Of a stretch of 64,000 nt of DNA, positions 9,879-64,000 are shown one piece after another. A model generated the notes under the pieces. It searched no databases. It was given only the letters and a program-made list of their open reading frames with translations, and was not told the DNA's origin. The DNA lies in the IMG/VR virus record IMGVR_UViG_3300025299_000102; one strand, written 5' to 3'. The number at the start of each line of letters is the position of its first letter. Within the stretch, counting starts at the first letter, position 1. The translations under genes were made by a program, and so were the position numbers. Origin of the DNA: a virus (lineage: Duplodnaviria; Heunggongvirae; Uroviricota; Caudoviricetes).

Positions 9879-11105
9879 ATGACCGCCATTCAGCAGGAAC
9901 TGCGTCGCCTTGAAGGTTTGACGCCAGAGGCTATCGCCACGCACTTTTTCGACAACTACGGCATCATCGCGCAGCTGCATCATCACGGCGCGCTATGGCT
10001 GTTTGATTATGACCAACTGGCGGCACACAAGCACCGCATGACCGACATGGTTATGGAGTCCCGGGGGCTAATCCTATGCGCAGAAACCCTGGACATTGTG
10101 CGCCGGCCGTTTGCTCGCTTCTTCAACATCGGCGAGGCGCCAGCCTACGAAAGCGACATCGACTATGAGAAGCTGGAAGCTCTGGAAAAAGTGGACGGCA
10201 GCCTGGTCACGCTCTACTACAACAAGGTCACCAATCATTGGCATTTCGGCACCCGTGGCACTCCGTTTGCGGAAGGCCGCAACCGTCATACGGGAAAGGT
10301 AATGTCCGACCTAATTTCGCGCGCAGCTGGCTTGGTCCACAAGCCAGGTACTTCGGAGTTTGACAAGAACCTGCGCAGCGCCGGAATTCTTGACCCAGAC
10401 GTGACTTATCTGTTTGAGTTCATCGGTCCGGACAATCCCCATGTTACTCGCTACACTGAATCCGAGCTTGTGCTTCTCGGCGCTCGGCGGCTTAATGGCA
10501 TTGAATATACGCCGCAAGAGGTCAACTTCTTGTTCAACCTGTTTACGGCGGTTGGTTGGCGAGTCCGCATGCCAAAGCGCTATCCAATCCCGCTGGCGCT
10601 TGGCGGTCTGGCACGCTCGCTTCAGGTTGAGGCCATCAAGAACTGGGTCGCCTCGGCGCCTGAGTTCAAAGGCTTACATGAAGGTGTTGTATGCATCAAC
10701 GCATCCACCGGAAAACGCCTGAAGGTAAAGACCCCGCTGTACTGCGCTGTTCATCTCCAGGGAGATGAAGTGGAAGGACTCAGCATCAGTAAGGCTCGCG
10801 TTGCAGACCTCATTGTCAATGGGGATGCCGATGAGTTCTGTTTGTACTTCCCGGCGTTGGCGCCAAAGGTGCAAGCCATGGCTGGCCAGGTACAGGCCTT
10901 TATCGAAGGTTTGGCTCCCATTTGGGAAGAAGTCAAGGATATCGCGGACCAGAAGGATTTTGCCGTTGCTGTGCAAGCTAAAGCACCTGGTGCTGCATCG
11001 GCCATCTTCTTCCTTGCTCGCAAGACGGGCGTGACGCCCGCTCAGGCTTGGATGGGAATGCCTTTGAACAAAAAGGCATCGCTGGCCGAGAAGCTGGTGG
11101 GGTAA
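9879..11105 (+). CDS. ATP-dependent RNA ligase, T4 Rnl1-like
   Basis: Nucleotidyltransferase motif I EKVDGSLVTLYY (cf. T4 Rnl1 KEDGSLV); size 408 aa; further KxxG motifs. Confidence 0.7.
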   Translation: MTAIQQELRRLEGLTPEAIATHFFDNYGIIAQLHHHGALWLFDYDQLAAHKHRMTDMVMESRGLILCAETLDIVRRPFARFFNIGEAPAYESDIDYEKLEALEKVDGSLVTLYYNKVTNHWHFGTRGTPFAEGRNRHTGKVMSDLISRAAGLVHKPGTSEFDKNLRSAGILDPDVTYLFEFIGPDNPHVTRYTESELVLLGARRLNGIEYTPQEVNFLFNLFTAVGWRVRMPKRYPIPLALGGLARSLQVEAIKNWVASAPEFKGLHEGVVCINASTGKRLKVKTPLYCAVHLQGDEVEGLSISKARVADLIVNGDADEFCLYFPALAPKVQAMAGQVQAFIEGLAPIWEEVKDIADQKDFAVAVQAKAPGAASAIFFLARKTGVTPAQAWMGMPLNKKASLAEKLVG

Positions 11106-39532: not shown

Positions 39533-40489
39533 ATGACGACAACTGTCAAACTAATCACGCATGACCGCGTGGTCCATGCGGACGATGCATTTGCTGTGGC
39601 AATCCTGCGGATTGCCTTTGGCGAAGTGGCTGTAATTCGTACCCGTAACCCTGAAATCCTCTATGTCGAGGCAGGGAAGCCGGATACATTCCTGCTCGAT
39701 GTAGGCGGGCGCTACGACCCTGAACAGCGCCTGTTCGACCATCACCAGCCGGAAGGTGCAGGTTACCGCAACATGCAGGTTTCGCCTCCAGAATGGCCGT
39801 ATGCAACTGCTGGCCTGGTCTGGAAGCATTACGGTGCCCAAGCCGTTCGTGCGCTGCATCCGTTTCTGAACGAAGAAGGTGTTCAAGAACTGGTGCAGCA
39901 CATCGACGACATCCTGTTGAAGTACATCGATGCGGTCGATTGTGGCGTACGCCTCAAGACCTCCGGACCATCCGTGTCCGCAATTATCGGTAGCTTCAAC
40001 TCGGCCTGGTTTGAGAAGGAGGAGGATGCGTTTCCACTGGCGAATTCTGTCGCCCAGGTGATTCTGTCCAACTTCATCAAGCGCCATGCCGGAAAGGTTC
40101 TGGCCCGTGACAAGGTGCGTCATGCGGAGTCTCGCATGGATGGTCGTGTACTTCTGCTGGAGGAATGCGTTCCTTGGGTTGAAGTTGTCATGGATGAAAT
40201 GCCCGACGTGATGTTTGTCGTGTATCCAGTTCGTGATGAATCGGAGACCATCCTCCAATGGCAGCTGCGTGCGGCGGCCAACAAGGATAAAACTCCACGT
40301 GTGATGCTCCCTCAAGCCTGGGGCGGGTTGGAGCGCAATGCTCTGGCACGTGTTTCTGGCGAACGAGATGCTGTGTTTTGTCACCGTTCGCGGCACCTCG
40401 CCGGAGCTATGTCTCAGGAAGGTGTCATGCACATGGCTGACATGGCAATTCGTGAGCACGTTCAGTCCGCGGAGCTGTTGGCCGCGTAG
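39533..40489 (+). CDS. MYG1/UPF0160 family metal-dependent hydrolase (paralog 2)
   Basis: THDRVVHADDAFA and DHHQ motifs; collinear with 8223..9125 product. Confidence 0.65.
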   Translation: MTTTVKLITHDRVVHADDAFAVAILRIAFGEVAVIRTRNPEILYVEAGKPDTFLLDVGGRYDPEQRLFDHHQPEGAGYRNMQVSPPEWPYATAGLVWKHYGAQAVRALHPFLNEEGVQELVQHIDDILLKYIDAVDCGVRLKTSGPSVSAIIGSFNSAWFEKEEDAFPLANSVAQVILSNFIKRHAGKVLARDKVRHAESRMDGRVLLLEECVPWVEVVMDEMPDVMFVVYPVRDESETILQWQLRAAANKDKTPRVMLPQAWGGLERNALARVSGERDAVFCHRSRHLAGAMSQEGVMHMADMAIREHVQSAELLAA

Positions 40490-40598
40490 TTGCTTTTCTG
40501 ACTTAATTCCCCCAGGTTTTTGCCTGGGGGTTTTTTCCTTTTCAAGGGAAAGAAATTTGGAGGGTTTTCCTATACTGAATACCCTCACTTTTGGAGTA

Positions 40599-41999
40599 AT
40601 GATGCTGTCTTCGGAACCCGTCCAAGTCAACGACGTAGCGAATGCCAACACCCTTAAGTACGTTCTCGACACAAACGTACTGCTGCATGACCCCGCCGCA
40701 CTGTTCCGCTTCCAGGAGCACGACATCTACCTCCCACTGGTCGTTCTTGAAGAACTTGACCGGCACAAGAAAGGCGTTGAGGACCTGGCGCGCAACGCAC
40801 GCCAGGTGACCCGTAGCCTGGACAACCTGCTGCAGCACGGCTCGATGGAACAAGGCTTTGCCCTCGCTGGCGCCTCGGAAGGTCGCGCCACCGGCAAACT
40901 GTACTTCCGGGAATCGACTGACCTCAACGACCAGGATGGCCCGGTCGGGCTGCAAGAGGGTAAAGCAGACAACCAGATTCTCGCCTGCGCGCGTAACCTC
41001 CTCCATGCACACGGCAATGCAGTTCTGGTCACCAAGGATATCAACCTGCGGGTCAAGGCGCTGGCGCTTAAAGTCCCCGCACAGGATTACCGCAGTGACC
41101 GTGTGCTTTCCGATGAAGACATCCTTCCAACGGGCTACATGGAAATTGATGCCTCCTTCTGGCTCGAACATGGCGTCACCGAGAAGAGCTACTTCCGCCG
41201 CAATAAAGTGCAGGCTGTGCGGGTGCCCACGCAACTCCCGGTCAATTCGTTCTTGGTCGAGCAAATCGAACGTAACGACCGCAAGAAAACCCGCCTGTGG
41301 CGTGTTGAAAGCTTCTCGTCCGAAGGTTCGGTACTTCTGGCTATCCCAAGCCAAGCGCCAAGCGATAATCCGCTGATTAGCGCACAAAATGAAGAACAGC
41401 AGATGGCGCTAAACCTGCTGCATGACACGAACGTGGACTTCGTTGCACTGCTAGGTAAGGCAGGCTCCGGGAAGACGCTGCTGGCGCTGGCCGCCGGCCT
41501 GGAGCAGGTGAGCGCTGGCCTTTTCGATAAAGTACTGATTACCCGCGCCACGGTTCCTCTGGGGGATGATATCGGCTTCTTGCCGGGCACCGAGGAAGAA
41601 AAGATGGCGCCATGGCTGAAAGGCACGCTGGAAGACCAGTATGTGGCTCTGCAGTTGGATGAAAAGAATCCTCTGCGTCAGAAGGTTGTCGTGGCCTCGA
41701 TGTCGTTCATGCGCGGCCGCAGCTTCCCTCGCACCTTCCTTATCCTCGATGAAGGCCAAAATCTGCGGCCAGAGCAGATGCGTGCACTGCTGACCCGTGC
41801 GGGCGAAGGCACCAAAATCGTGGTGACCGGCAACCTTGCCCAGATTGATACGCCGTATCTCGATGAAGGTACTTCGGGTCTTACCTGGGCGGCAAAGAAC
41901 CTGCATGACTGGCCGCACGCAGGACACATCATCCTGCCGCGCGGTGTCCGCAGCCGGCTGGCGACCTATGTCGAAGACATCGCAGCCAAGAAAACGTAA
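40599..41999 (+). CDS. phoH: PhoH2 (PIN domain + PhoH-like ATPase)
   Basis: N-terminal PIN (YVLDTNVLLHD); Walker A GKAGSGKT, VLITRATVPLGDDIGFLPGTEEEK, ILDEGQNL motifs of PhoH; GGAG RBS before ATGATG 40599. Confidence 0.8.
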   Translation: MMLSSEPVQVNDVANANTLKYVLDTNVLLHDPAALFRFQEHDIYLPLVVLEELDRHKKGVEDLARNARQVTRSLDNLLQHGSMEQGFALAGASEGRATGKLYFRESTDLNDQDGPVGLQEGKADNQILACARNLLHAHGNAVLVTKDINLRVKALALKVPAQDYRSDRVLSDEDILPTGYMEIDASFWLEHGVTEKSYFRRNKVQAVRVPTQLPVNSFLVEQIERNDRKKTRLWRVESFSSEGSVLLAIPSQAPSDNPLISAQNEEQQMALNLLHDTNVDFVALLGKAGSGKTLLALAAGLEQVSAGLFDKVLITRATVPLGDDIGFLPGTEEEKMAPWLKGTLEDQYVALQLDEKNPLRQKVVVASMSFMRGRSFPRTFLILDEGQNLRPEQMRALLTRAGEGTKIVVTGNLAQIDTPYLDEGTSGLTWAAKNLHDWPHAGHIILPRGVRSRLATYVEDIAAKKT

Positions 42000-42624: not shown

Positions 42625-43125
42625 TTACAGATAGCCAACTGCAGTAGGCGGGAGGCCCAGGCGTTGTGCAACATGAATAGCATGCTGTCCTGTCGGCATG
42701 GTGCCGCGCTCCCAGTTTTGCAGCGTAGTGATGGGTATGCCCCAAGCTGCCGCAAATTCCCTCAAATTCAGCCCCAGTTGCATTCTCTTTGCGATAATCA
42801 GCGTCGCAATATCAATAACCGGAGAGGGCGCCTGCTTAGTCAAACGCAGCGCGCGCTGAATGCGGAGAGTTTGAACTGCGTCTGTCGGATAGCTAAGCAA
42901 GTTAAGTCCCAGTAGTCGCGCTACGCGGACCAGCTTCAGTCCTTTCGGTATGCGCAATTCCGTCTCCCAACCGGCCAAATCGCTTCCGGTAATCCCGGTC
43001 ATCAACTCGACCAAATCAGCCCGCGTCCAACCATTTGCACTGCGGAGACTGCTCAAGCCTTGTGCGATGTCTCGCTTAAGCTTTGCATCCGATTTCTGCG
43101 GTGCAGTTTGCACGTGTTGTTCCAT
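42625..43125 (-). CDS. XRE-type helix-turn-helix regulator
   Basis: C-terminal LREFAAAWGIPITTLQNWERG HTH. Confidence 0.5.
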   Translation of the reverse strand: MEQHVQTAPQKSDAKLKRDIAQGLSSLRSANGWTRADLVELMTGITGSDLAGWETELRIPKGLKLVRVARLLGLNLLSYPTDAVQTLRIQRALRLTKQAPSPVIDIATLIIAKRMQLGLNLREFAAAWGIPITTLQNWERGTMPTGQHAIHVAQRLGLPPTAVGYL

Positions 43126-43129
43126 AATA

Positions 43130-44520
43130 TCCTCAAGTCAGATTCAAACCAGTTAGGTGTTTTTCCACTTCAAGGTATAGTTCCAGGAACGTAAAAACCC
43201 CGGTTGACCCGGGGTTTGAGGTTAGCCGCGGCGAATTTCGCCGGCATATTCTTGACGTCCGCCCAGCCCTAAAGGGCAGGGATTCCTGCTGCCAGGCCCG
43301 CACGTCCGCGGGCGAGGATGTTCTTGGCGGCATTGACATCGCGGTCGTGTTCCGCGTTGCAAGCACAGCACTGCCATCCTCTTATTCCAAGACCTGCGAC
43401 ACCTTTCGGCCCCGTGCGTGAACCGCAGCACGAACAAGTCTGGGTGGAAAACGCTTCATTGACTTCCTCGAACCATACGCCGGCGTCAGCGCACTTGTAC
43501 TGCAGCATGGTTCGGAATGCACGCCAGCCGGCATCGAGCACGGACTTCGCCATGCCGGTTTTTGCCAGGGCGGCCGCATTCACGTTGCCTACGAAGATAG
43601 CACCATACTCGCGTGCGAGCGTGGTACTGAATTTGTGCAAGGCGTCCTTGCGCCTGTTTGCTATTTTTGCATGCAGGGCTTTGACGCGTTGTTTCTTATT
43701 CGCCCGCTGAGCCATCGCCAACGCCGGCTCCAGGTCCCGATAGAACCGGTTTGCCTCGAGTGTCTCGCCAGTGCTGAGCGCAGCGAAGTCTTTCAGGCCC
43801 AGGTCGATACCGACTTCCCGGGTGGTGGTACTGCGCGCTGGCTTGGAGAACTTGACCGTAACGTTCAGGTACCAACGGCCACGGCTATCCTCGCTGAACG
43901 AGCCAGGTCCCAGTTCGAATTGGCTTAGGCTGTAGCTGTCCCACAGCGAAAACGGTTGACCACAATACCAGAGCTGGCCCTGTCGGTATCGCAAGGCTGA
44001 TGCCTTAAACGGTACCCAACCTAATGACCTGCGTGCGCCACCTGATTTGCGCCAGGCCAACCGCCGTTTATTAAATTGTCGCCGCCGAGTGACCAGTTCC
44101 TTGCTAATTGCCTGTACCGTTTGCGAATGGAGTGATAGACCTACTTTTGTCGCACCTGACGTGTAGCGGTCCAACTCAATGTTTGAGCAGAATCGTCCCT
44201 CGCGTTCTAACACTTTTACAGCTAGCTCGTTACAGAAGTTCCACACGAAGTTAACTTCCCGAGCCTGTGCGCGCAAGAACGCACTGTGCTTGTCTTTCAG
44301 TCTAAGGCGCAAGGTTCGTATTGTCGACGAAGAACTACTGGTCATATGTACAGTATATTCGATGCCCGCCGTATCAGCAAGTCACTGGATGCGCCCAACA
44401 TCCCCGGCCTTTAGGCCGGAGCCTTCGAATACCTCTTTGAGCCTGCCTGCGACTAACGCATCCTTCAGTTCACCGCACCGGACATAGCCCAGGCTTGGAG
44501 TTATTGCTCATAGGTATAAG
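43130..44520 (-). mobile_element. IS200/IS605-family insertion element carrying only tnpB (IS1341-like)
   Basis: TnpB ORF flanked by subterminal hairpins (AAACCCCGGttgaCCCGGGGTTT 43196-43218; CCCCGGCCtttaGGCCGGAG ~44395-44415; GGCCGtttaGCGGCC ~44523); boundaries approximate. Confidence 0.55.
43269..44345 (-). CDS. tnpB: TnpB (OrfB) RNA-guided endonuclease-type transposase accessory protein
   Basis: 358 aa; RuvC-like residues and C-terminal zinc finger CSCCGS...CCACNAEHDRDVNAAKNI typical of IS605 OrfB. Confidence 0.8.
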   Translation of the reverse strand: MTSSSSSTIRTLRLRLKDKHSAFLRAQAREVNFVWNFCNELAVKVLEREGRFCSNIELDRYTSGATKVGLSLHSQTVQAISKELVTRRRQFNKRRLAWRKSGGARRSLGWVPFKASALRYRQGQLWYCGQPFSLWDSYSLSQFELGPGSFSEDSRGRWYLNVTVKFSKPARSTTTREVGIDLGLKDFAALSTGETLEANRFYRDLEPALAMAQRANKKQRVKALHAKIANRRKDALHKFSTTLAREYGAIFVGNVNAAALAKTGMAKSVLDAGWRAFRTMLQYKCADAGVWFEEVNEAFSTQTCSCCGSRTGPKGVAGLGIRGWQCCACNAEHDRDVNAAKNILARGRAGLAAGIPAL

Positions 44521-48114: not shown

Positions 48115-49584
48115 ATGATGAAAAAATTCCACTGGTTTGATAACGCTGCTGAACTGTTGGCCCTGGGTTCGCCACAACCTACGATGAACGCGACCGAGAT
48201 GTATGCTGGTCCTTTCCCGATGGTGCTGGATGAACTCAATCCAGACGACACGCCAGGTCCACGCCAAAGCCACGAGCTGGTGAGCTCGCGCATCTACCAG
48301 GTAAAGGTAGGTGCAGACGTGTATGCTGCGGTGGTGCTTTGCCGTATCGAAGCGGGCAAGCCACAGTGGACAGTTTACTGTGGCGACGAGCAAGCTGACG
48401 GCAAGCAAACGCTGGACGGCAAGACTCTGGCGGGTAAAATGCGTGCGGATGCGGCAGCCAACGTTTCGTTGGCTAACATGATGGAAGCATCTGGCTGGGT
48501 GAATTCGGTTCCTGACCAAAACACCGGTTGTGGCTTCTGGCGCATGTTGGCTCGCGGTCTGGCTAAAGTCCCGGCTGTGGTCAAGATTTGCCCGCATACG
48601 CAGATTGCGTTGTCTCTGCTTCAAGAGAGCGACCTGAAAGCCATGGCAACGGAGGTTCAGGACTGGAAGGATGGTAAAGTTGCAGCCGTTGTAGCTCCAA
48701 CTGGTCCGCTCTCTCCAGAGGAGGAAGCTTTCCATGACGCGGCCTTCATCCAGCACGTACTGCTGGCTGGTGAACGCGGTGCTGGTAAGTCCTGGCTGGC
48801 TCGTGCAGCGGCTGCTCAGCATGACGCCGTCTACCTCGAGATGCAGATGCATCCCTCCATGGAAGCATGGGAGTTCCGTGCACATGACCGCGCCTGGAAC
48901 GGCAAAGTCTACACGGTGCTGGGTAAGCTCGCTGAAGCTGTGTACTGGATTCAACAGGGTAAGAAGGTCATTCTGTGTATGGACGAGTTCTTGAACATGA
49001 ACCCGCTCTACACGACTGCCATCAACTCCCCGCTGACCCTGACCGACGACGACCACTACATCATTGAGACTGGCCGCATCATCGACTTAGGCGATGGTAT
49101 CGGTCAAATCGAAACGGTGAAAGTGCCGGCCGACAAGTTCTGGGTGGTTGCGACGACTAACATCGGCGCCCGCTACAACCTGGACAAGATGGCACCGTCG
49201 GTACGTGCTCGCTTCCAAATCATCCTGATGAATACCAACCCAGAACGTACCAAGACGATTCTCGAAAAGACTCTCGCTAAGTACGGTATGCCGTTGGCAT
49301 TCGCAGAAATGTTCAAGAAGTTCATCGAGGCAGCTAACCAGGCTGTTGCGGAGAACACCTTGGATGAGGAGGCAACGACTCGTCTGGCGTGCAATGTGGT
49401 GCGCGCTGTTCATCTGAAGGCCAAACGCGACCGCAAGTCGTACCCTTCGGTTGCACTGTGGCTGCCGGTCATCAAGAAGCAACTGCTGCGAGAAATCGCG
49501 CAGGTAGTGAACTTCGAACTGGGACCGTTGGACGTAGAGCAGGAACTGCACTTCAAGGGTCTCGTCGACGCATCCTTCAAGTAA
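48115..49584 (+). CDS. CobS-like / MoxR-type AAA+ ATPase
   Basis: Walker A GERGAGKS, Walker B ILCMDEF; paired with downstream vWA protein as in phage cobS/cobT modules. Confidence 0.6.
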   Translation: MMKKFHWFDNAAELLALGSPQPTMNATEMYAGPFPMVLDELNPDDTPGPRQSHELVSSRIYQVKVGADVYAAVVLCRIEAGKPQWTVYCGDEQADGKQTLDGKTLAGKMRADAAANVSLANMMEASGWVNSVPDQNTGCGFWRMLARGLAKVPAVVKICPHTQIALSLLQESDLKAMATEVQDWKDGKVAAVVAPTGPLSPEEEAFHDAAFIQHVLLAGERGAGKSWLARAAAAQHDAVYLEMQMHPSMEAWEFRAHDRAWNGKVYTVLGKLAEAVYWIQQGKKVILCMDEFLNMNPLYTTAINSPLTLTDDDHYIIETGRIIDLGDGIGQIETVKVPADKFWVVATTNIGARYNLDKMAPSVRARFQIILMNTNPERTKTILEKTLAKYGMPLAFAEMFKKFIEAANQAVAENTLDEEATTRLACNVVRAVHLKAKRDRKSYPSVALWLPVIKKQLLREIAQVVNFELGPLDVEQELHFKGLVDASFK

Positions 49585-49704: not shown

Positions 49705-51741
49705 ATGTCGAGTGGATTTTTGCTGGCCGATGCGCTTTCGAAAGTTTTGCGCAGGCCATACCAACAAGGTGATATGACCATTACGCTCAACTATCTGGTT
49801 GAGGGTCTTAAAATCGGTGCCTATCGTGTGATGTTGAAGCGTGACTTCGACACCGCATGCTGGATTCCACCGGTCGGGAAACGTGCTTCGCATTCCATCT
49901 ACTACGGTGACCGCATGGTCGCTCGCGTGCTGGAGCGCTTCGTGAGTGTGAACGAAATCGAGATGCCTGCAGCGAAAGACTTTGTTGCTCAAGTCAAAGC
50001 TGAAGTCACACGCGAAAAAGAAGCAATGCGGCTGGCCAAGGAAGCGCGCGATAAGGCCGGAACTCTGCCTGCAATGAAAGGTAAGGTTCCAGCGCTTCCC
50101 AAGTCGAATCCGATGTCCTTGAAAACTCGCCTGCTGGACGCGCAGCTGCAATGGCTGCATGACAACGGCGAAAAAGAACAGTGGGAACTGTTCCTGGAAT
50201 GGTTGCTCAAGGCTGTGGCGTCTTATGGCCGCCACGAACGTGAGCATGCCCGTAATACGCCTCAGGATATGAAGCAGGTCAATCGCGACCTGAAGACCCT
50301 GGGCATTCCGTTCAAGTACTTCAACTTGTTTGAGGACGCACGCATCGAACACATCTCCCGGAAGGAATTGGGCGGCAAGTTCGATTGGATGATGTTTGAG
50401 GAACTGGCTCCGGCCAACCACCCATTCAACATCTTCCTGCGCTGCATTCAGTTTGAAGGCGAGCAGGACGTCATTGCCCTCAACAGCGAGGACCCTTACG
50501 CTAAGGACCCTTCGCTGACGATTGGCCACATCGCTGAATCCGTCGAAACCTACTACCAGAAGGCGTGCGGCTGCAAAACGGCCGAACACCTTTACCCCAT
50601 CATCCTTGAGTTCTTGGAAGAATTCAAGGAAGACCTGGAAGAAGAAGAACCTCCTTCGGGTGGTTCAGGTGACGGGGAAGAAGGCGAGGGTGGTGGTGGA
50701 GGCAGCAGTAGTGCTCCACCTTCCGGTTCGGGTTCCAAGGGCCGTGGTAAGAAGGGCCCTGAGTCCGAAGATGAAGACGAAGGGGAAGACAATGGCGCCG
50801 GCGAACGTGCTGGGGACCTGTCTACGGCCGCTGATGCAGCGGACAAGGGGGACGAATTCTTCGACGACTTCGAAAAAGACGCGGATGTCATCGGCGGTAC
50901 TGATGCGGAAGGCAAAGCTGCTGAAGCTAAGGCAAAGGAGGCAATCGATGGTGCAAAGAAACCTGCACCAAAGAGTGGCGAGGGTGGCGGCCAGGGTGAG
51001 GCTGGTTCAGTTGAACCATCTGAGTCTGGTGGCCAAGCCAAACCTGAACACTTCCTGGCTAAGCATTCTGGCGAAATGGATGACGTCTACCGAAAACGTG
51101 TCGACAACCTAACCAGTATGTTGATGCGCATGTTTAAGACGCATTCATTGCCAGCGGCAGTGGAAACTCCTGGGCAGCGTATGTCTGGGCGCCATTTGGC
51201 CCACGGCGAGCTGCGTTGGCTGCATAAACGGGTATTCGGAGGCAAAGGGAAACGCAAGTACACCATTGTCTTTGACTGCTCTGGTTCCATGGCTGGCAAA
51301 CCCACCCGGGAAGGCAAGTTGTTGGTTCTGGCGCTGAACAACCTGGCCAAGCGCGGCTTTTTGGAAGGTAAGCTCATCCTATCGGGATACCCAAACGGCC
51401 GCCCTGGCTGGTTGACGTATGATTTCCCGGTTGCGGAAGATGTGGTCCTCCGAATCAACCCATGCCATGGCTCTGAAGGTCTCCAGTCTGCACTGGCCGA
51501 CAATCTGAAGCACATTACTGGCATGGATGATGTGTTTGTAGTTACTGATGCAAACATCTGCGATGCTCCCCTCAATCGTGACCAGTTTGCGAAACGCCGC
51601 GTATGGCCTGTGGGCTTGTATGTGGGGTCTCGTAAAATGGCAACGGAGATGGAAGTGCATTTCCCGCAGAACATCATTCGTGACACCATTGAAGAAGTGG
51701 TGGAAGCGATGTTGACGCGTAACCGTCGTACTGTTGGCTAA
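49705..51741 (+). CDS. CobT-like protein (acidic Gly/Glu-rich linker + C-terminal vWA/MIDAS)
   Basis: Acidic low-complexity region EEEEPPSGGSGDGEEGEGGGGG...; VFDCSGSM MIDAS motif near C-terminus. Confidence 0.6.
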   Translation: MSSGFLLADALSKVLRRPYQQGDMTITLNYLVEGLKIGAYRVMLKRDFDTACWIPPVGKRASHSIYYGDRMVARVLERFVSVNEIEMPAAKDFVAQVKAEVTREKEAMRLAKEARDKAGTLPAMKGKVPALPKSNPMSLKTRLLDAQLQWLHDNGEKEQWELFLEWLLKAVASYGRHEREHARNTPQDMKQVNRDLKTLGIPFKYFNLFEDARIEHISRKELGGKFDWMMFEELAPANHPFNIFLRCIQFEGEQDVIALNSEDPYAKDPSLTIGHIAESVETYYQKACGCKTAEHLYPIILEFLEEFKEDLEEEEPPSGGSGDGEEGEGGGGGSSSAPPSGSGSKGRGKKGPESEDEDEGEDNGAGERAGDLSTAADAADKGDEFFDDFEKDADVIGGTDAEGKAAEAKAKEAIDGAKKPAPKSGEGGGQGEAGSVEPSESGGQAKPEHFLAKHSGEMDDVYRKRVDNLTSMLMRMFKTHSLPAAVETPGQRMSGRHLAHGELRWLHKRVFGGKGKRKYTIVFDCSGSMAGKPTREGKLLVLALNNLAKRGFLEGKLILSGYPNGRPGWLTYDFPVAEDVVLRINPCHGSEGLQSALADNLKHITGMDDVFVVTDANICDAPLNRDQFAKRRVWPVGLYVGSRKMATEMEVHFPQNIIRDTIEEVVEAMLTRNRRTVG

Positions 51742-51912
51742 CTATCTGGGCCGGAGGAATCCGGTCCAGTAAGCCTAAGGCATATATGGTCTAGCCGCAC
51801 GTATGTGCTGCCGAAGATTCAACCTCTAGCCACCCACACCAGGGTGGCTTTTCTTTTGTCCGATAAAAAACAAGCCCACCAGGAGGTGGGCTTGCAGAGT
51901 TACATCATTCAG

Positions 51913-52713
51913 CTAGTTCAACGACACGGACTCGCCAGTGATACGATTGATGATGCGCGCATCGTGGCCTTCTTTCAGAATGTCCTCAGCATTGCTGCGA
52001 GCTGCTTTCAGGCTGTCAAACGAATGGTCAGCCAGCCATCCGGCAACCGAACCTCCCTCACAGCGATAAGTCATGTCGAAGCCCAATATAGCTGGCTGCT
52101 CCAAGACTTCCGCTGTTGCCTTCTCATCTGTCACCTTTGCCAGCACGATGCCGCGGACTGGCATCAGCTTGCCGTCAGGCGTCACCAGGATGTCATTGTA
52201 GCTAACCAGGAAGGGCGTATCGCCCGTGCTGGCTGTCGTCACAATATCACCCCTGCGAACATCCTTAGGCAGTTCGCGTACCTGCAGCAGTCGGGGCTGA
52301 TACCCAAGTGGGTACTCCTGCAAGTGCAGGGTTACCTTTTGGACCGGCGCGTTTTTCGCACCGCCACCGAGCAATTCTGCAAACTGCAGAATGTGTTTTG
52401 GTGAGCCGCTTACTGCATGCGTACGAATCAGCAGAGGAAGCCAGCATTCCTTGTTCAGTACGGCATCGTTTAGCTTCAGGGTTTCCCCATCCACCACAAA
52501 TACCATCCCGAACCGGGCGCACCAGTCAACGAGCGCTTGAAGCGGATTCGCAACCAGGTCCTGCAGCGCCTCCCATTGCTGCTCGGCCGGCAGCGCCTGC
52601 CGCAAGATGTCACGCCCAGAAAGAAACACTGGGTTATTACGCAGGAGCCGGATAAGCTGACCGGTCGGTCCAACCACGGTAATCCCCAATTCAGTTTCCA
52701 TGCTAGAGAGCAT
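51913..52713 (-). CDS. hypothetical protein (266 aa), downstream partner of GHKL ATPase
   Basis: 33 nt after GHKL gene on same strand. Confidence 0.5.
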   Translation of the reverse strand: MLSSMETELGITVVGPTGQLIRLLRNNPVFLSGRDILRQALPAEQQWEALQDLVANPLQALVDWCARFGMVFVVDGETLKLNDAVLNKECWLPLLIRTHAVSGSPKHILQFAELLGGGAKNAPVQKVTLHLQEYPLGYQPRLLQVRELPKDVRRGDIVTTASTGDTPFLVSYNDILVTPDGKLMPVRGIVLAKVTDEKATAEVLEQPAILGFDMTYRCEGGSVAGWLADHSFDSLKAARSNAEDILKEGHDARIINRITGESVSLN

Positions 52714-52746
52714 GTGATTCTCCTTTTCCTTTAGGCCTATGGCCGA

Positions 52747-55203
52747 TTAGCGATACACGGCAGCCAAGGCCACGCATAAATCTTTCACCGCGTCCGCCGG
52801 CGCAGCACCATTACTGGTGGTCATCATGCGTAGCAGCGGAAACCGTGTCAGCAGATTCCTGTACACCAGGTCATAATTCACCATGCCCTGGTGCTTCAAG
52901 CGCTCCAGCGAATCCAGAAGTTCCGTGCGGTCCTTCGTATCCGTTGGCTGCGCAGCCAAGTGATTGCCAAAGCGGATTAGACCACCGCAAAGTTTGCCGA
53001 AGTTCTGATTCACAATTGCGGACTTATGCAATTTAGTGGTCCCAGTTAGCAAATCGACGTGAGGTGAAATCTCCTTGTCGAACTGCGTTCCGGTCAACTC
53101 CAAGCGGGGGCTCTTTGCTAGCATCTCGCACAGGTTGGTAAACTGCCAGCATTCGGATACTTGTCGAACCTTTTTCCCCGCCAGGACGTTTTGAACGTCA
53201 GGGCGAGCAACTAGCTCCGATAGCAGGGCCTCCACTGGTTTCCAGGATTTAAGAGCTTTGACTTCAGCTATCGTTGCTTCGTCGATTTCGTTGTCAATGA
53301 AATCGGCCTCGCTCATCTCAAGTAACCCTTCAGCATCGGCTTCATCAATCGCTTGACGAAGTTCTGCTGCTTGTTTGGGATTGAGAAGATACAGGCGGTC
53401 GACTTTCACAGCCTCCAAAATGTGCTCAAGTCCGCCTTCCGACCCGTAACTAGCGTGCAAATGGCCAAGCTGGGAATCTTTAGCAAAGCCGGCCAGCGCC
53501 CCGCCATCCTTTTCCAGCCACACGCGAACAGGCTCCGTGGTGCTGATAGCCATCATGTTCATCGGCTCCGTCACCTGCTTGTCCGCTTTAACAGAGAAAT
53601 ACGTCAAGGCAGCTCGCCGGCTCACTGAACTACGTGAACCTGCTTCCCGCGGTACGTCCGGCATTTTCGAGGTGAGTATAATTTCCAACTCACCAAGGAA
53701 TGCTTTCGAGACCGAGTCAGCCGCTGCTTTCGCTTCGCCAGCAACGGTTGAAGCAAAAAAGATGAACTGACGATGCTTGTTGTTGTTCACCCAAGCTCGA
53801 GCTCGCTGCGTTCCGCCAGACTTCATGTCATCCACCAGCAGGATGACGGGGTCATTTGCGATGAAGGTCTGTGCAACGTAAGAACCTTTTTCAGCAGGAA
53901 TCGCAATTCGGCCAGAAACTACATAGGCCGCACGCATAGTTCCACTTCCCTTGCTGGTGTATTTCAACTTCAGGTCGTCTCCCGACGCTGAAATCGGCAT
54001 ACGCAGCTTGCCATTCCACTCATACCCACCTGTAGCCGTTTTCAGCGTCTTGTTAAGCACATACTCAATTTTCTCCTGCGGTGTGTTCTTGATGTACTGC
54101 TGCCGGGTGCTCTTCGCAAACCAATGCCAGGCCTCGGTATTTCCGAGCAGATTAGAAAGCAAAGCTCTAGGTGTTAGGCCAGGCAAGGAATATAGCTCCT
54201 GCGCCTTCGCAACAACAGCTTTTCCGGCTGCAGCGTCTATGCGTTTCAAGAGTTCGTTTACTTCGTCGGTGTATTTAATTTCTTCACGTGACGGCATGAA
54301 CGGAATCTTGAACGACATCGGGACCTCAACTACCATTCCCTCCTCAAACACTGACTCCACGTCGGTAGGTGTTTGAACATGGAAAGGCAAGCCGCCTACG
54401 CCAAATTCTTTGTTAGTCATGACCAACAAAGAACCCTTCTGCGTGCCCTGACGATGGTACTTCAGATTCGACCCCTTCATGGGGTAAACACGAACCCCTT
54501 TCAGACCCGAATCCACCGTTCCCAGGTCCAGTACTGTGCCCGAGAATTCTGGCAGCATGGTTGGTAGGGCGCCGAGGTTGTCCACTGTGAAGGAGTCTCC
54601 CATAGTCAGCTGCATCACTTCTTTCAGCCAGGCCACAGCCCGCAGAGCTTCAGCGATGTCAGTTTCTTTGACAGGGAAGTACACCCTGGTTCCAACTACA
54701 GAGCCCGGCACCTCAGAGGCCTTTTGCACACGAGGCTTCAAGCCGTCGCCCTGGAATTGGAAGTAAGTACGTTCCACCATGTCACTTTCGTGGCAGGTAG
54801 TGATGTAGCACTCACGGATATAACCGTAAGCTGCCCATCGCCCTACGCCCAGGCCGCCGGCCGCGTTGTTATCGCCTTCCTTAGTTGATTTGCCAAACGA
54901 CAGATAACCGTTAGGGTCTTCCATGAAGGTCTGCGTCATGCCAGAGCCTTTGTCGATGACGGTAATCATCGGATTAGCGATGGTCGGCAACTGCACCAGT
55001 ACGCCTTCAGCGAACGACAAACCAGCACGTCGCGACGCATCACAGGCATTCTGAATGGCCTCACGAATGGCCGACATCAAGATGAACGCATACACTGTGG
55101 ACAGCATCTCCATCAGTGCACCATTCAAGTTGACCGTCGCATCCATCGCGCTGCCCATTGCCGTCACATCCGCCTTTTTCGAGTCGGTTGCAATAATTGC
55201 CAT
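52747..55203 (-). CDS. GHKL-superfamily ATPase, Hsp90-like N-terminal domain (818 aa)
   Basis: N-box REAIQNACDA (cf. Hsp90 RELISNASDA), G1 IDKGSGMT, G2 GGLGVGRWAAYGY (cf. GQFGVGFYSAF). Confidence 0.6.
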   Translation of the reverse strand: MAIIATDSKKADVTAMGSAMDATVNLNGALMEMLSTVYAFILMSAIREAIQNACDASRRAGLSFAEGVLVQLPTIANPMITVIDKGSGMTQTFMEDPNGYLSFGKSTKEGDNNAAGGLGVGRWAAYGYIRECYITTCHESDMVERTYFQFQGDGLKPRVQKASEVPGSVVGTRVYFPVKETDIAEALRAVAWLKEVMQLTMGDSFTVDNLGALPTMLPEFSGTVLDLGTVDSGLKGVRVYPMKGSNLKYHRQGTQKGSLLVMTNKEFGVGGLPFHVQTPTDVESVFEEGMVVEVPMSFKIPFMPSREEIKYTDEVNELLKRIDAAAGKAVVAKAQELYSLPGLTPRALLSNLLGNTEAWHWFAKSTRQQYIKNTPQEKIEYVLNKTLKTATGGYEWNGKLRMPISASGDDLKLKYTSKGSGTMRAAYVVSGRIAIPAEKGSYVAQTFIANDPVILLVDDMKSGGTQRARAWVNNNKHRQFIFFASTVAGEAKAAADSVSKAFLGELEIILTSKMPDVPREAGSRSSVSRRAALTYFSVKADKQVTEPMNMMAISTTEPVRVWLEKDGGALAGFAKDSQLGHLHASYGSEGGLEHILEAVKVDRLYLLNPKQAAELRQAIDEADAEGLLEMSEADFIDNEIDEATIAEVKALKSWKPVEALLSELVARPDVQNVLAGKKVRQVSECWQFTNLCEMLAKSPRLELTGTQFDKEISPHVDLLTGTTKLHKSAIVNQNFGKLCGGLIRFGNHLAAQPTDTKDRTELLDSLERLKHQGMVNYDLVYRNLLTRFPLLRMMTTSNGAAPADAVKDLCVALAAVYR

Positions 55204-55379
55204 AATTTACCTCCGTTAGATAATTGAAAACTCAGAAAGCGCAAGCTTCGCGCCCTATATGTGCCTACAAGGCCGTATAGCTCTCTGCGAAAGGCGTTCC
55301 TGATGTTATGCAGACCGAATTAAGACCCAGGCCGTCCCAGCGGTTTAGGCGCGGGCGCGTCGGGCTGACCAGTACCCCT

Positions 55380-55505
55380 AAGCAGTACGGTCGATTAATG
55401 ATATATCGTTGATAAATAACGTATTTTACGCTATTATGCGTTTATACGCTATACGAAAACGGACATATAGTCCGTGTCAACCCGCCGGGTTGCACACGTG
55501 TGAAC
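55380..55505. promoter_or_regulatory. AT-rich intergenic region with clustered palindromes and short direct repeats
   Basis: ACGGACatataGTCCGT, CAACCCGcCGGGTTG, CACACGTGTG in tandem; TACGCTAT repeats; CGATtaatgatatATCG. Confidence 0.4.
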
Positions 55506-55524
55506 ATTACGAGAGGAAACAACT

Positions 55525-56700
55525 ATGACTATCACTTGCCTGAGCCAGGTTGCATTGCATTGCAAAGACGGTAGCAGCGACAAGCTGTACATTATCCAGG
55601 TGCAGGAGGAGACTACTGCGGCTGGAACTAAGTACAAGACTGTGGGCTACTACGGTCGTAGGGGCGGCACCTTGAACACCTCTCAGAAGTTTGAGGGGCC
55701 TAGTCTCGCAGCCGCAAATGCGAAATCCAATGCCTTGGAAAAGGAGAAGCGGGGCAAGGGTTACGACGACTATACAGACCCAATTCCTGGGATGCCTTCG
55801 GCTGCACCTAAGTTCGGCGGTCCTGCGGTGGCATCTGCTGCGGCTGCAGTAGCTGCTGCGGTGCCCCCTAAGAAGGCATCCGTAGGGCCGCTGCCTATGC
55901 TCGCTGAAGTCGCGGACGAAGCTCGTGCAGAAGTGCTGATGTCCGACCCAGACTGGGTGGGGCAAAAGAAGTACGACGGTGAGCGCGTGACGGTTTCTAT
56001 TCGTCGAAACGGTATCCAGGCATATAACCGAAAAGGCGAGGAGCGCGCACTGTCCGGGCCGGCAGAAGCTTCTTTGAAGCGACTGGTTGCACGTACGGAC
56101 TTCAGCGATGACCGTGAGACGGTTCTCGATGGTGAACTGATGGGTGACGTGTACGTTGCCTATGACGTCCTTGTTCTGCGCGATAACGACATTCGCAAGA
56201 CGTCGTACGAAGAACGTTACTATCAGCTGGAAGCGCTGCTCGAAGACAACCTCGGGCTGCTGGCCGAAACCGCCTGGACCGAAGAGGCAAAGCGTGCCAT
56301 GTACGCTCGTGCCTTGAAAGAGGGTTGGGAAGGCATGATGTTCCGTAATGTGGAAGGCAACTACGTTACCGGACGCACGCCGCTCCTGCTGAAGTTCAAG
56401 CTCTGGGCTACTGCAACTTGCCGTGTTTTGACGGTGAACTCGAAGCGTTCTGTTCAACTCGCCCTGCGAGACGAACACGACAACGAACAGTTCTGCGGCA
56501 ATGTCACGGTGCCGGTCAATCAGGACATCCCTACCGGCGATGACCTGGTCGAAGTTCGCTACCTCTATGCAATGGAAGGTGGCAGCTTGTACCAACCAGT
56601 GCTGATTCGTGTGCGTACAGACATCGATGAGGCAGACCTGCGTTCAACCCTGCGACAAGCACCGCCAGAAAAGCGTGAACCTCTGGCTGCTGCCGCATAA
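55525..56700 (+). CDS. ATP-dependent DNA ligase with N-terminal WGR domain
   Basis: WGR-like KLYIIQV...VGYYGRRGG...KGY; ligase motifs KKYDGERV (I), DGELM (III), EGMMFR (IV), LLKFK (V). Confidence 0.8.
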   Translation: MTITCLSQVALHCKDGSSDKLYIIQVQEETTAAGTKYKTVGYYGRRGGTLNTSQKFEGPSLAAANAKSNALEKEKRGKGYDDYTDPIPGMPSAAPKFGGPAVASAAAAVAAAVPPKKASVGPLPMLAEVADEARAEVLMSDPDWVGQKKYDGERVTVSIRRNGIQAYNRKGEERALSGPAEASLKRLVARTDFSDDRETVLDGELMGDVYVAYDVLVLRDNDIRKTSYEERYYQLEALLEDNLGLLAETAWTEEAKRAMYARALKEGWEGMMFRNVEGNYVTGRTPLLLKFKLWATATCRVLTVNSKRSVQLALRDEHDNEQFCGNVTVPVNQDIPTGDDLVEVRYLYAMEGGSLYQPVLIRVRTDIDEADLRSTLRQAPPEKREPLAAAA

Positions 56701-56788: not shown

Positions 56789-57754
56789 ATGTTTTATCGA
56801 AAAAATAGTGAAGGTGAGGTCCTGACGCAGGAATCCCTGGTAGCAGAGCTTCTCAAAGAGCGAAAGCGTGACCGGCGCGCGGGCCTGTTGAAAACCGCGT
56901 TCTTCGTGCTGGCGGGTATCGCATATTTTTGGTGGTGGTCGGCCATCTTCAATTTTGGTGGCGCTCAGGGTGAGGTTGAAACGAGCAAGCCATTTGCGGC
57001 CGTCGTCAAGATTTCAGGCATGATTAGCCCTGACAGTGAAGCCAGCTACGAAGTATTGGCCCCTACACTCAAAAAGGCGTTTGAGCATCCCAACTCCAAA
57101 GGCGTGGTCTTGGCCATCAACAGCCCTGGCGGCACGCCCGTGCAGTCTGCACTCATCCACGACCTCATTGTCAAGCTGAAGAAAGAAACCGGCAAGCCGG
57201 TGGTTGCGGTCGGCGAAGATATGATGACATCTGGCGCCTACATGATTGCTGTTGCGGCTGACCAGCTTGTCGTCAATCGCTCAACCGTAACTGGCTCGGT
57301 AGGGGTGATTTCTTCCGGCTTCGGATTTAGCGGGTTGATGGATAAGCTCGGTGTCGAGCGCCGTGTTGCGACTGCCGGCCAGTCCAAAAATCTCCTGGAC
57401 CCGTTCAGCCCTCAGACCGAAAACAGCATCGCAAAGCAGCACGAGCTGCTGTCGGCTATCCACGGGCACTTCATCGACATCGTTAAAGCAGGGCGTGGCG
57501 ACCGGCTAGACCTGCATACCAAAGGCCTTTTTGAAGGCACTGTCTGGACAGGCGAGGAAGCAGTGAAGCTCGGCGTGGTGGATGAACTGGGTGACATGCA
57601 GGGTGCTGCTAAGAAGTACCTCGGTGTCGATACCGTTGTCTCGCTGTCCCGCCGGAAGCCAATGCTTCAATCCTTGCTGGATACCGCTGGAGTCAAAGTG
57701 GCAAACTCGGTCATCAACAGCTCGGTTCAAATGCCAATGGCAACCTTCCAGTAA
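56789..57754 (+). CDS. sppA: S49-family peptidase (SppA/SohB-like)
   Basis: N-terminal TM; GKPVVAVGEDMMTSGAYMIAVAAD...GSVGVISSGFGFSGLMDKLGVE catalytic Ser/Lys regions of S49. Confidence 0.75.
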   Translation: MFYRKNSEGEVLTQESLVAELLKERKRDRRAGLLKTAFFVLAGIAYFWWWSAIFNFGGAQGEVETSKPFAAVVKISGMISPDSEASYEVLAPTLKKAFEHPNSKGVVLAINSPGGTPVQSALIHDLIVKLKKETGKPVVAVGEDMMTSGAYMIAVAADQLVVNRSTVTGSVGVISSGFGFSGLMDKLGVERRVATAGQSKNLLDPFSPQTENSIAKQHELLSAIHGHFIDIVKAGRGDRLDLHTKGLFEGTVWTGEEAVKLGVVDELGDMQGAAKKYLGVDTVVSLSRRKPMLQSLLDTAGVKVANSVINSSVQMPMATFQ

Positions 57755-61932: not shown

Positions 61933-64000
61933 ATGAAACTGAAGACCATTGCCCTCGCGATGATGCTCGCGACCGGTAGCGCGTATGCCGCGCCGGCGCT
62001 GCAAACCTGCTCTCCAATGGAGGTGACCCACAACGGCGCTGCGGGCATCTCCTACAGCCTCTCTTGCGAAGCTGGTGGATGGGCGCTGAAGTACACCGGC
62101 TCCGTGCCAGCTGGTGCAGATGCGATTACTGCGCAGTACCGCGTCCAGGTTCGCAATGCCGACGGCGCTAACTTCACCAACAACCGCGCTGTACGCCTGC
62201 CGTCCCCAGCGATGCTGGGTCAGGCCTTGGTCCGCGAGGCTATCGTTCTGGACAATGGCGACCTGGCTTTGCGTGATTGCCCTGACTTTGGCTGTACCCT
62301 GTACCGCCCCCTGGGTAACGCCGAAAAGCTTGCCAAAGCGACCATCACGATTACCCCTGAGGTTAAACGCCTCAATGAAGAAGCCCTTCGCTTGACCCAG
62401 GAATTGGCTGCCCGCCAGATTCAGCTGGATGCCCAAAAAGCTGATATCGAGGTGCTTAAGGCATTAGCCCAGCACCGTGCGGACCAGCTCGCTGCAGCTG
62501 AAAAGTCCCTGGCAGACCTGCAAGGCGCCTTCCAGGCTGCGAAGGAGCAGAATGCGGCGGACATTGCCGGCTTGCTGCAATCCAGTCAGGCCGACCTGAA
62601 AAAAGCCAGCGAGGCAGCGGACGCCAAGGCAAACGGTCAGATGGCCAGTATGTCGTCGCAGCTGGCCGCCGCTGGCGCCTCTCTGGCAAAAGCTCAAGCT
62701 GACTTCAACGAGTGCTCGTTGGCACACAATGAAGCCGCAGCCGCACAGAAAAAGGCATCCGAAGACGTCGAGTCGCTCAATAAGAAGCTTGTCGACCTGC
62801 AGGAGGCCTTGGCTGCCGCAGGCGAGAAGCTGAAAACCGAGCAAGACGGCTTCGCTTCCGAGCGCAACGACCTGCAAACAAAACAAGCCCAGCTGCTTTC
62901 TGCGAAGAACTCCGACCTCGCAACGGCTCAAGCAAGCCTTTCCGGCGCCAACAGCCAAGTAGCGGACCTGTCTGACCAAGTTGCCGGCCTGGAACGCGCT
63001 CTCAACTTGGCTCAGCAGGAGTTGAAATCAGCCAAGGACGCTCTTGTTGCCCGCGATGCTGAGTTCAGCGCCAAAACTACTGAACTGGTTGTTCAGCGTG
63101 CTGACCTGGAAGCCGCACATGCGGCCGCCCGACAAGCTATTGCGGAATTGAAGTCGCACCATGCTGCACAGGTTGAAAACCTGCAAGCTTCCTTCAACAA
63201 AGCGTCGGATGAACTTGCCGCTTTGTCCGCAAAGGCAAATGCCAAGGAACTGGAGCTGGCTGAAAAAGTGGCCAGCCAGTCTAAGCTGGCCGCGGAGCAG
63301 GACGCAGACCTGCACGACGTGCGCTCGCGTGTGGAGCTCGCAGCAAGTCAGCTCGAGCAACAGGCAAAGAAGGTTGCGGACCTGGAGCAAAGCTTGGCGG
63401 CCGCCCGGCAGACCATTGCTGAGGCTCAGAACGCCAAAGCAGATAACCTGGCTGCGCTGGATGAAGCAGTCGCCTCTACGAGTGAAGCCCGTGCGGTGGC
63501 TGAGCAACGTGCACAGCAACTGGCAGAAGCCCAAAAAGCGTTGGATGACTGTTCTGCAGCTCATCAGCGGGAACTCGCAGCACTCACGGCTAGCCTCGCC
63601 GCAAACCAATCGACCACGGAAGCAGAAGTCGGCGACCTCAGAAAGGAAGTTTCCGGCCTGACCACTGAACGCAACGTTGCCAAGGAAGAAACTTCTCGCC
63701 TTACGGCTGAGCTGGCCGAGCTCAGCGCCGCCATGGACAAACTCGAGCTTGAGCGCACGGATGCGTTGAAGGGCGCCCAGACTGTGGCCAAAGAGATGCT
63801 TGCGGCCTTGGACCAATTCCAGGAGCTGCTGGCAGCCAAAGCCGACGTCGACAAGGCGCTGGAGACCACCACCAACAAAGTTTTCGAACTGTCGACTAAG
63901 CTCGATGCGGCAAACCTTACCCGCGACCTGGCAATGCAAGCCGCAACCGCCGCTAATTCGGATGCAGATACCCAGGCGCTGAAGAATCAGGAACTGGCAC
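61933..64000 (+). CDS. large secreted coiled-coil protein (partial; continues beyond window)
   Basis: Signal peptide MKLKTIALAMMLATGSAYA; Cys-containing N-domain then >550 aa continuous Ala/Glu/Leu/Gln coiled-coil; no stop before window end. Confidence 0.6.
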   Translation, partial: MKLKTIALAMMLATGSAYAAPALQTCSPMEVTHNGAAGISYSLSCEAGGWALKYTGSVPAGADAITAQYRVQVRNADGANFTNNRAVRLPSPAMLGQALVREAIVLDNGDLALRDCPDFGCTLYRPLGNAEKLAKATITITPEVKRLNEEALRLTQELAARQIQLDAQKADIEVLKALAQHRADQLAAAEKSLADLQGAFQAAKEQNAADIAGLLQSSQADLKKASEAADAKANGQMASMSSQLAAAGASLAKAQADFNECSLAHNEAAAAQKKASEDVESLNKKLVDLQEALAAAGEKLKTEQDGFASERNDLQTKQAQLLSAKNSDLATAQASLSGANSQVADLSDQVAGLERALNLAQQELKSAKDALVARDAEFSAKTTELVVQRADLEAAHAAARQAIAELKSHHAAQVENLQASFNKASDELAALSAKANAKELELAEKVASQSKLAAEQDADLHDVRSRVELAASQLEQQAKKVADLEQSLAAARQTIAEAQNAKADNLAALDEAVASTSEARAVAEQRAQQLAEAQKALDDCSAAHQRELAALTASLAANQSTTEAEVGDLRKEVSGLTTERNVAKEETSRLTAELAELSAAMDKLELERTDALKGAQTVAKEMLAALDQFQELLAAKADVDKALETTTNKVFELSTKLDAANLTRDLAMQAATAANSDADTQALKNQELA

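Follow-up and report, generated by a model that had tools for sequence, protein, structure and literature searches.

What does a large GHKL-type ATPase do on a phage-like element, and is the small gene that follows it a true partner? The question is raised by positions 51,913 to 55,203 of IMG/VR virus record IMGVR_UViG_3300025299_000102 (Caudoviricetes), a stretch of 64,000 nucleotides (nt) that is called the window hereafter. An earlier note on this DNA had drawn attention to two co-directional open reading frames (ORFs), encoding proteins of 818 and 266 amino acids (aa) and separated by 33 nt, and the ORF list confirmed this arrangement, including the exact length of the spacer. The note had likened the larger protein to Hsp90, HtpG or MORC, and had considered such an ATPase unusual on a phage-like element. 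The analysis presented here leads to a different identification: the locus is probably a deeply diverged two-gene rIIA-rIIB module of large bacteriophages, for which a counter-defence role is the most likely one. The rII locus is among the oldest known and least understood of phage modules. The module as such is already known; what is new is a distant member of rIIA, together with a structural variant of rIIB that lacks the C-terminal feature by which its family is defined.

The 818-aa protein is a distant member of the rIIA family

All GHKL ATPases, and not Hsp90 alone, share the motif order N box, G1, G2. That the 818-aa protein has the GHKL (Bergerat) ATPase fold, as the earlier note had proposed, was borne out by a match of aa 43-146 to the Pfam family HATPase_c_3 (E 3e-7, above the gathering score). 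All three motifs that the note had quoted are present, with REAIQNACDA starting at aa 47, IDKGSGMT at aa 83 and GGLGVGRWAAYGY at aa 116. The GHKL motifs as a whole occupy aa 47-56, 83-90, 116-128 and 171-178, and 11 residues within them (E48, N52, D55, D84, G86, G88, G116, G119, G121, G171 and T172) are invariant among 35 homologues that are 34-100% identical to the window protein; judged by these residues, the ATP-binding site is intact across the clade. There are 87 homologue clusters for the 818-aa protein, nearly all of full length, and 61 homologues for the 266-aa protein (43-100% identity), and both genes are therefore taken to be real.

Five PHROG rIIA families match the 818-aa protein, the best being phrog_612 (E 2e-29), and a tblastn search of 50,697 phage genomes returned 1,199 records, nearly all of them annotated as rIIA, so that an ATPase of this kind on a phage-like element is not unusual after all. 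Identity in these alignments is only ~21-27%, over roughly aa 6-480 and mostly over aa 30-320. A profile of the 35 homologues was then compared with one built from eight rIIA proteins of T4-like, N4-like, FelixO1-like, rV5-like, KVP40-like and Streptomyces phages: hhalign aligned aa 1-352 with rIIA 1-341 at a probability of 99.6% (E 7.8e-25), and at 99.8% (E 1.2e-28) when the N-terminal halves were compared alone. Two motifs outside the generic GHKL core, STK (aa 106-108) and PSRE (aa 304-307), have S/K and R/E columns that are invariant in the clade and rIIA alignments alike, and PSRE lies in a second domain of the rIIA type. The ATPase domain and this second domain, with both motifs, are thus common to phage rIIA and the window protein, which are also of similar size (640-850 aa).

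The likeness is not confined to the N-terminal half when structure is considered. The AlphaFold2 model of the 818-aa protein has a predicted local distance difference test (pLDDT) score of 86.7 and is confident in aa 356-818 too, and in a Foldseek search of BFVD with this model nearly all of the top 50 named matches were rIIA proteins, with E values down to 2e-26. Since the Foldseek alignments with rIIA are 830-920 columns long, for targets of 640-775 aa, the fold similarity probably covers the whole protein. Published descriptions of rIIA give it an N-terminal GHKL domain and a highly variable C-terminus (PMC7824862), and the C-terminal 460 aa of the window protein, which are unrelated in sequence to those of phage rIIA, fit that description. 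The same architecture of a GHKL domain followed by a long variable C-terminal region, at ~650-850 aa in all, is held by the 818-aa protein. We therefore regard it as an rIIA homologue. One difference lies in the ATPase domain itself. No GHKL model of Pfam picks up the rIIA of Yersinia phage JC221 (T4-like; locus L001, 3390-5576), not even with the limit relaxed to E 10, but HATPase_c_3 does recognise the window protein; the ATP-binding domain of the clade is therefore nearer to the general GHKL consensus than that of the T4-like protein.

The readings offered by the earlier note have to be set against these results. An acquired chaperone of the HtpG/Hsp90 type, acting with a co-chaperone in folding or virion assembly, is effectively refuted. 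The Bergerat fold and its motif order are held in common with HtpG/Hsp90, a phmmer search of the PDB gave a marginal likeness to the Hsp90 N-terminal ATP-binding domain only (E 0.13, ~80 residues), and some phage rIIA-like proteins are themselves annotated 'HSP90 family' (Foldseek ranks 43 and 45). However, neither PF00183 nor any HtpG model was matched in Pfam and NCBIfam, no Hsp90 middle or C-terminal dimerisation domain was found there, and collinearity with HtpG ends at the ATP-binding fold, the second domain carrying the PSRE motif of rIIA instead. Nothing was found in support of a role as virion-assembly chaperone.

A second possibility is that the element or its host uses the pair as a defence system, in which a MORC- or paraMORC-like GHKL ATPase works with an effector partner. 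GHKL ATPases are present in several defence systems, NCBIfam returned a weak match to a sacsin-type N-domain (E 0.003, below the cut-off), and the adjoining gene for a WGR-domain ligase matches two candidate PADLOC models. PADLOC had no match for either protein of the pair, though, the best relatives of the ATPase by both sequence and fold are phage rIIA proteins rather than MORC or MutL, and the partner carries no nuclease or other effector domain, all of which makes a defence system very unlikely. The labels Hsp90-, HtpG- or MORC-like thus give way to membership in the rIIA family, which PHROG, hhalign and Foldseek agree on.

The two genes form a predicted operon with strict linkage

From their layout, the two genes are predicted to be transcribed together, as a bicistronic unit closed by a strong terminator (Table 1). 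The spacer holds a ribosome-binding site and no terminator, and a terminator-like hairpin appears only after the partner gene. On the 5′ side, GGAGG stands 8 nt ahead of the ATG of the rIIA-like gene, and a GC-rich hairpin, GGGCGCGAAGCTTGCGCTTT, lies in the presumed 5′ leader at 55236-55256 (minus strand), ~33 nt upstream of the start codon. A promoter scan of the minus strand found no sigma-70-like promoter for the two-gene operon. No transmembrane segment was predicted from hydropathy in either protein, a property shared with the T4-type rIIA and rIIB proteins.

Linkage was assessed by running four hidden Markov models (HMMs), for the clade rIIA-like protein, canonical rIIA, the partner and canonical rIIB, over all ORFs of 37 fetched loci. 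The partner lies directly downstream on the same strand in 17 of the 17 clade-ATPase loci with downstream DNA, without exception. These represent 12 distinct elements, 34-100% identical to the window protein, and include loci from Burkholderia ubonensis, Novimethylophilus kurashikiensis and Achromobacter anxifer. In the same way, canonical rIIB is found downstream of canonical rIIA in all 16 loci of that type. The A-type HMMs always cross-hit between the two sets and the B-type HMMs never did. The two-component unit that the earlier note had suggested is thereby supported, as is the conserved co-occurrence of the partner; neither full-length collinearity with HtpG nor a lack of partner linkage, the combination that the note had set against its proposal, was found.

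The position of the partner is that of rIIB. In T4 and in N4-like, Vi01-like, FelixO1-like, rV5-like and Streptomyces phage loci the A gene is directly followed by the B gene on the same strand, as in the window, and adjacency in this order was seen in ten phages of at least six lineages. Escherichia phage RB43 even has a natural RIIA-RIIB fusion of 1,049 aa, the twelfth-ranked Foldseek match of the 818-aa model (E 6e-22), which shows that A and B function as a single unit. The fusion is a single protein, whereas the window has separate genes 33 nt apart and a B part of divergent type.

The 266-aa partner is the rIIB counterpart of this lineage

Database searches with the partner itself were uninformative. 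No match was obtained in Pfam, PHROG, PADLOC or NCBIfam, tblastn against the phage records found nothing, and BLASTP against T4-like and N4-like rIIB gave nothing significant. An exhaustive HMMER search with the partner profile against 1.84 billion representative proteins returned 38 clusters, all of the partner's own family except two spurious repeat proteins, and offered no bridge to rIIB.

With a 53-sequence rIIB profile, hhalign aligned partner aa 2-119 with the rIIB central domain (aa 56-162 of T4-like rIIB) over 107 columns, at a probability of 96.4% and E 1.2e-9, and four cross-domain controls all stayed below 5%. The probability had climbed with the depth of the profiles, from 33% to 79% (after divergent partner members from the exhaustive HMMER search had been added), then to 95% in domain-wise comparison and to the final value. 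For the AlphaFold2 model of the partner (pLDDT 92.6), the best named matches in BFVD were two proteins of the top four: the Pectobacterium phage Arno162 RIIB, aligned over 263 columns with E 8.8e-5 and a probability of 1.0, and an rIIB-like protein of N4 (E 9.8e-3). Their template modelling (TM) scores are only 0.2-0.3.

Because of its rIIB position, the central-domain match and the RIIB fold matches, we call the partner the rIIB counterpart of this lineage; under its present definition, the rIIB family does not include it. By these alignments, the partner appears to keep the rIIB central domain, to be without the N-terminal helix-turn-helix, and to have a C-terminal domain that is either different or diverged beyond recognition. 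Several helix-turn-helix matches are found at aa 5-48 of T4-like rIIB; none was matched in the partner, whose aa 2 aligns with rIIB aa 56. The hallmark C-terminal domain of rIIB (PF26926; PHROG 609/3803) follows the pattern DIEI.EDG...TCS.GLHV...VNPRDVVSVP.DY...CRY. In its place the partner has a conserved beta-rich domain of its own (aa 120-266), which is the most conserved part of the partner family and is not recognisably the rIIB domain. The partner is also shorter than phage rIIB (266 aa against 293-707 aa).

Several of the results weigh against the assignment of the locus to the rII module. On the side of the ATPase, aa 356-818 compared with the C-terminal halves of phage rIIA gave an hhalign probability of 0.4%, equal to that of the reversed control, and the global TM-scores of the Foldseek matches are low for both proteins (0.2-0.4). 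On the side of the partner, a PHROG scan of 36 family members gave zero rIIB matches, the precomputed Pfam annotation places PF26926 on 0 of 61 partner homologues and on every canonical rIIB listed, and the C-terminal half scored 0.3% against the rIIB hallmark domain in hhalign. A DNA search with the 3.3-kb region against the 50,697 INPHARED phage records found no match, the protein matches to rIIA are only distant, and no close relative of either gene was found in IMG/VR. No capsid, portal, terminase or tail gene was found among the ~66 ORFs of the window. Lastly, the mechanism of rII is obscure even in T4, and any functional statement for the pair is an extrapolation.

The partner results in particular leave room for another explanation, namely that the ATPase is a true rIIA but that the 266-aa gene is unrelated to rIIB, a lineage-specific gene that has displaced it, the central-domain match being convergent or spurious. 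The two proteins may still cooperate in that case, though not as an rIIA-rIIB complex. Such a displacement would account for a partner that no rIIB HMM matches, that has neither PF26926 nor the helix-turn-helix, and whose first, shallow profile comparison reached only 33%. Against it stand the steady rise of that value with deeper profiles while the controls did not move above 5%, the independent structure search that placed RIIB proteins among the top four of the whole BFVD, and the position of the gene, the exact equivalent of that of rIIB. We consider displacement unlikely on balance, and a diverged rIIA-rIIB module the better account of the locus.

A possible counter-defence role for the pair

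T4 cannot escape RexAB of lambda lysogens unless it has both rIIA and rIIB, which are otherwise dispensable; RexAB is an abortive-infection system that depolarises the membrane, and mutation of rIIA leads to the rapid-lysis phenotype (PMC8594841; bioRxiv 10.1101/2025.11.20.689424). That rIIA and rIIB counteract RexAB is also documented elsewhere, together with the finding that RIIB alone can trigger a bacterial gasdermin defence (PMC10312443). By analogy with T4, the pair in the window is most likely an ATP-driven counter-defence module directed against abortive-infection systems. The two proteins would form an A-B complex that, powered by ATP hydrolysis, blocks or outlasts a Rex-like suicide response, and the infected cell would survive until the element has replicated. 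The complex, ATP hydrolysis as its driving force and the Rex-like target are all carried over here from the rII family. Of the two roles that the earlier note had allowed for a GHKL ATPase in this conflict, defence and anti-defence, it is the latter that agrees with the known role of the rIIA family; for the former, PADLOC had no match to offer.

Only the ATPase and second domain of A, and only the central domain of B, are kept in this lineage. These three are the best candidates for the shared core of the module and point to a minimal conserved rII core that may correspond to the A-B interaction surface. The variable ends of A and B may tune the module to individual hosts or defences. The short B variant, predicted to fold with high confidence, would be a well-folding subject for structural work. 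In addition, the idea of an Hsp90/MORC chaperone on a phage can be dropped as a false lead, and two genes now listed as "hypothetical" or "ATP-binding protein" in Burkholderia assemblies become annotatable.

Host element and genomic context

Isolates and metagenomes alike have yielded contigs of 225-720 kb with homologues of both rII-type genes, and the carriers include cultured Burkholderia ubonensis, B. multivorans, B. vietnamiensis, Paraburkholderia, Achromobacter and Novimethylophilus. Related contigs are LPBJ01000047.1 (640,310 bp), LPBK01000018.1 (640,048 bp), NZ_CAHLAR010000005.1 (486,889 bp) and NZ_BDOQ01000007.1 (225,409 bp); the large contigs were read within ~10 kb of the genes. A tblastn search of the PLSDB plasmids with the rIIA-like protein found nothing, a literature search turned up no description of such elements, and the window contains no tRNA gene that could be found. 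Very large lytic phages typically have a gene set like that of the window. The element family could be an undescribed one, megaphage-like or plasmid-like, and the element itself could be a megaphage, a phage-plasmid or something else. A further proposal, which we put forward only tentatively and with doubts, is that the pair represents a separate, previously unannotated type of rII, with a B subunit in which both terminal domains have been exchanged, and that it is the signature pair of an undescribed family of phage-like extrachromosomal elements of 0.2-0.7 Mb. The element behind these half-megabase contigs may matter more than the gene pair itself, and it is the lead most worth following.

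The genes around the pair are conserved as well. A MoxR-type AAA_5 ATPase, a 678-aa protein and a WGR-domain ATP-dependent DNA ligase flank it alike in relatives down to 34% identity. The 678-aa protein combines a long linker, acidic and Gly-rich, with a vWA-like DCSGS (MIDAS) motif at the C-terminus; searches with it and with the topoisomerase of the window gave no informative phage relatives. An S49 peptidase gene beside the ligase is retained only in closer relatives (B. ubonensis).

This neighbourhood bears on the last of the alternatives, in which the 818-aa protein is a DNA-acting GHKL enzyme, similar to MutL or to topoisomerase VI subunit B, that serves replication or repair jointly with its neighbours, the adjoining DNA ligase and the topoisomerase nearby. 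The divergent WGR/ATP-dependent DNA ligase gene adjoins in all related elements, and there are weak matches to the ATPase domain of topoisomerase II (PHROG E 0.003, PDB E 0.68). The matches to rIIA are far stronger, however, a Pfam scan detected no Toprim, transducer or endonuclease domain in the 818-aa protein, and conserved flanking order is expected from common descent and is no proof of a functional link; it may be plain synteny. An enzyme of this kind is highly improbable, and the diverged rII module is again to be preferred.

Table 1. Features of the rII-type locus and of other parts of the window (positions are those of the 64,000-nt window)
Feature	Position	Strand	Remarks
rIIA-like GHKL ATPase gene	52747..55203	-	818 aa, 89 kDa; no predicted transmembrane segment (hydropathy)
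rIIB-position partner gene	51913..52713	-	266 aa, 29 kDa; ORF list
N-terminal rIIA-homology region (aa 1-355 of the 818-aa protein)	54139..55203	-	Pfam, invariant columns, domain-wise hhalign
Clade-specific C-terminal region (aa 356-818 of the 818-aa protein)	52750..54138	-	
Intercistronic spacer, 33 nt	52714..52746	-	Putative ribosome-binding site AAAGGAGAA of the partner gene; terminator scan found none
Partner N-terminal domain (aa 2-119)	52357..52710	-	Homologous to rIIB central domain (hhalign)
Partner C-terminal beta-rich half (aa 120-266)	51916..52356	-	TYRCEEG..GWLED.SFDSL...ARIINRITG
Intrinsic-terminator-like hairpin	51870..51895	-	11 pairs, 7 of them G-C, then TTTTTAT; 18 nt past the partner stop codon
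Divergent intergenic region between rIIA-like and WGR/DNA-ligase genes	55204..55524	.	Presumed promoter region
Flanking genes of the rII pair	48115-49584, 49705-51741, 55525-56700, 56789-57754	+ (all)	
Glutamine-dependent NAD synthetase	4075-5793	+	
T4 Rnl1-like RNA ligase	9879-11105	+	
DUF2828/DUF7788 TROVE-like vWA protein	18549-19925	+	
PIN-PhoH fusion	40338-41999	+	
Helix-turn-helix gene adjacent to TnpB gene	42625-43125	-	
TnpB/IS605 OrfB gene (Cas12f-like TNB domain)	43269-44345	-	
Large ORF running off the window end	~61934-64000	+	Faint coiled-coil family matches

Elsewhere in the window, the NAD synthetase, the Rnl1-like ligase, the DUF2828 protein and the PIN-PhoH fusion make up a cluster of auxiliary genes of the NAD+/RNA-repair type. 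The DUF2828 protein has 694 phage relatives and is 39% identical to the versions of T4-like phages. Also encoded are a topoisomerase IA, HNH endonucleases, a NinB-like protein and an M15 peptidase, as well as a class II aminoacyl-tRNA synthetase, a histone-deacetylase-like protein, a 5′-nucleotidase and an MYG1 exonuclease. A recent insertion is suggested by B. ubonensis, which has a PAAR protein and other small genes at the position of the TnpB gene. The ORF that extends past the end of the window measures at least 860 aa in a related contig, where it is cut at the contig end, and 745 aa long in B. ubonensis.

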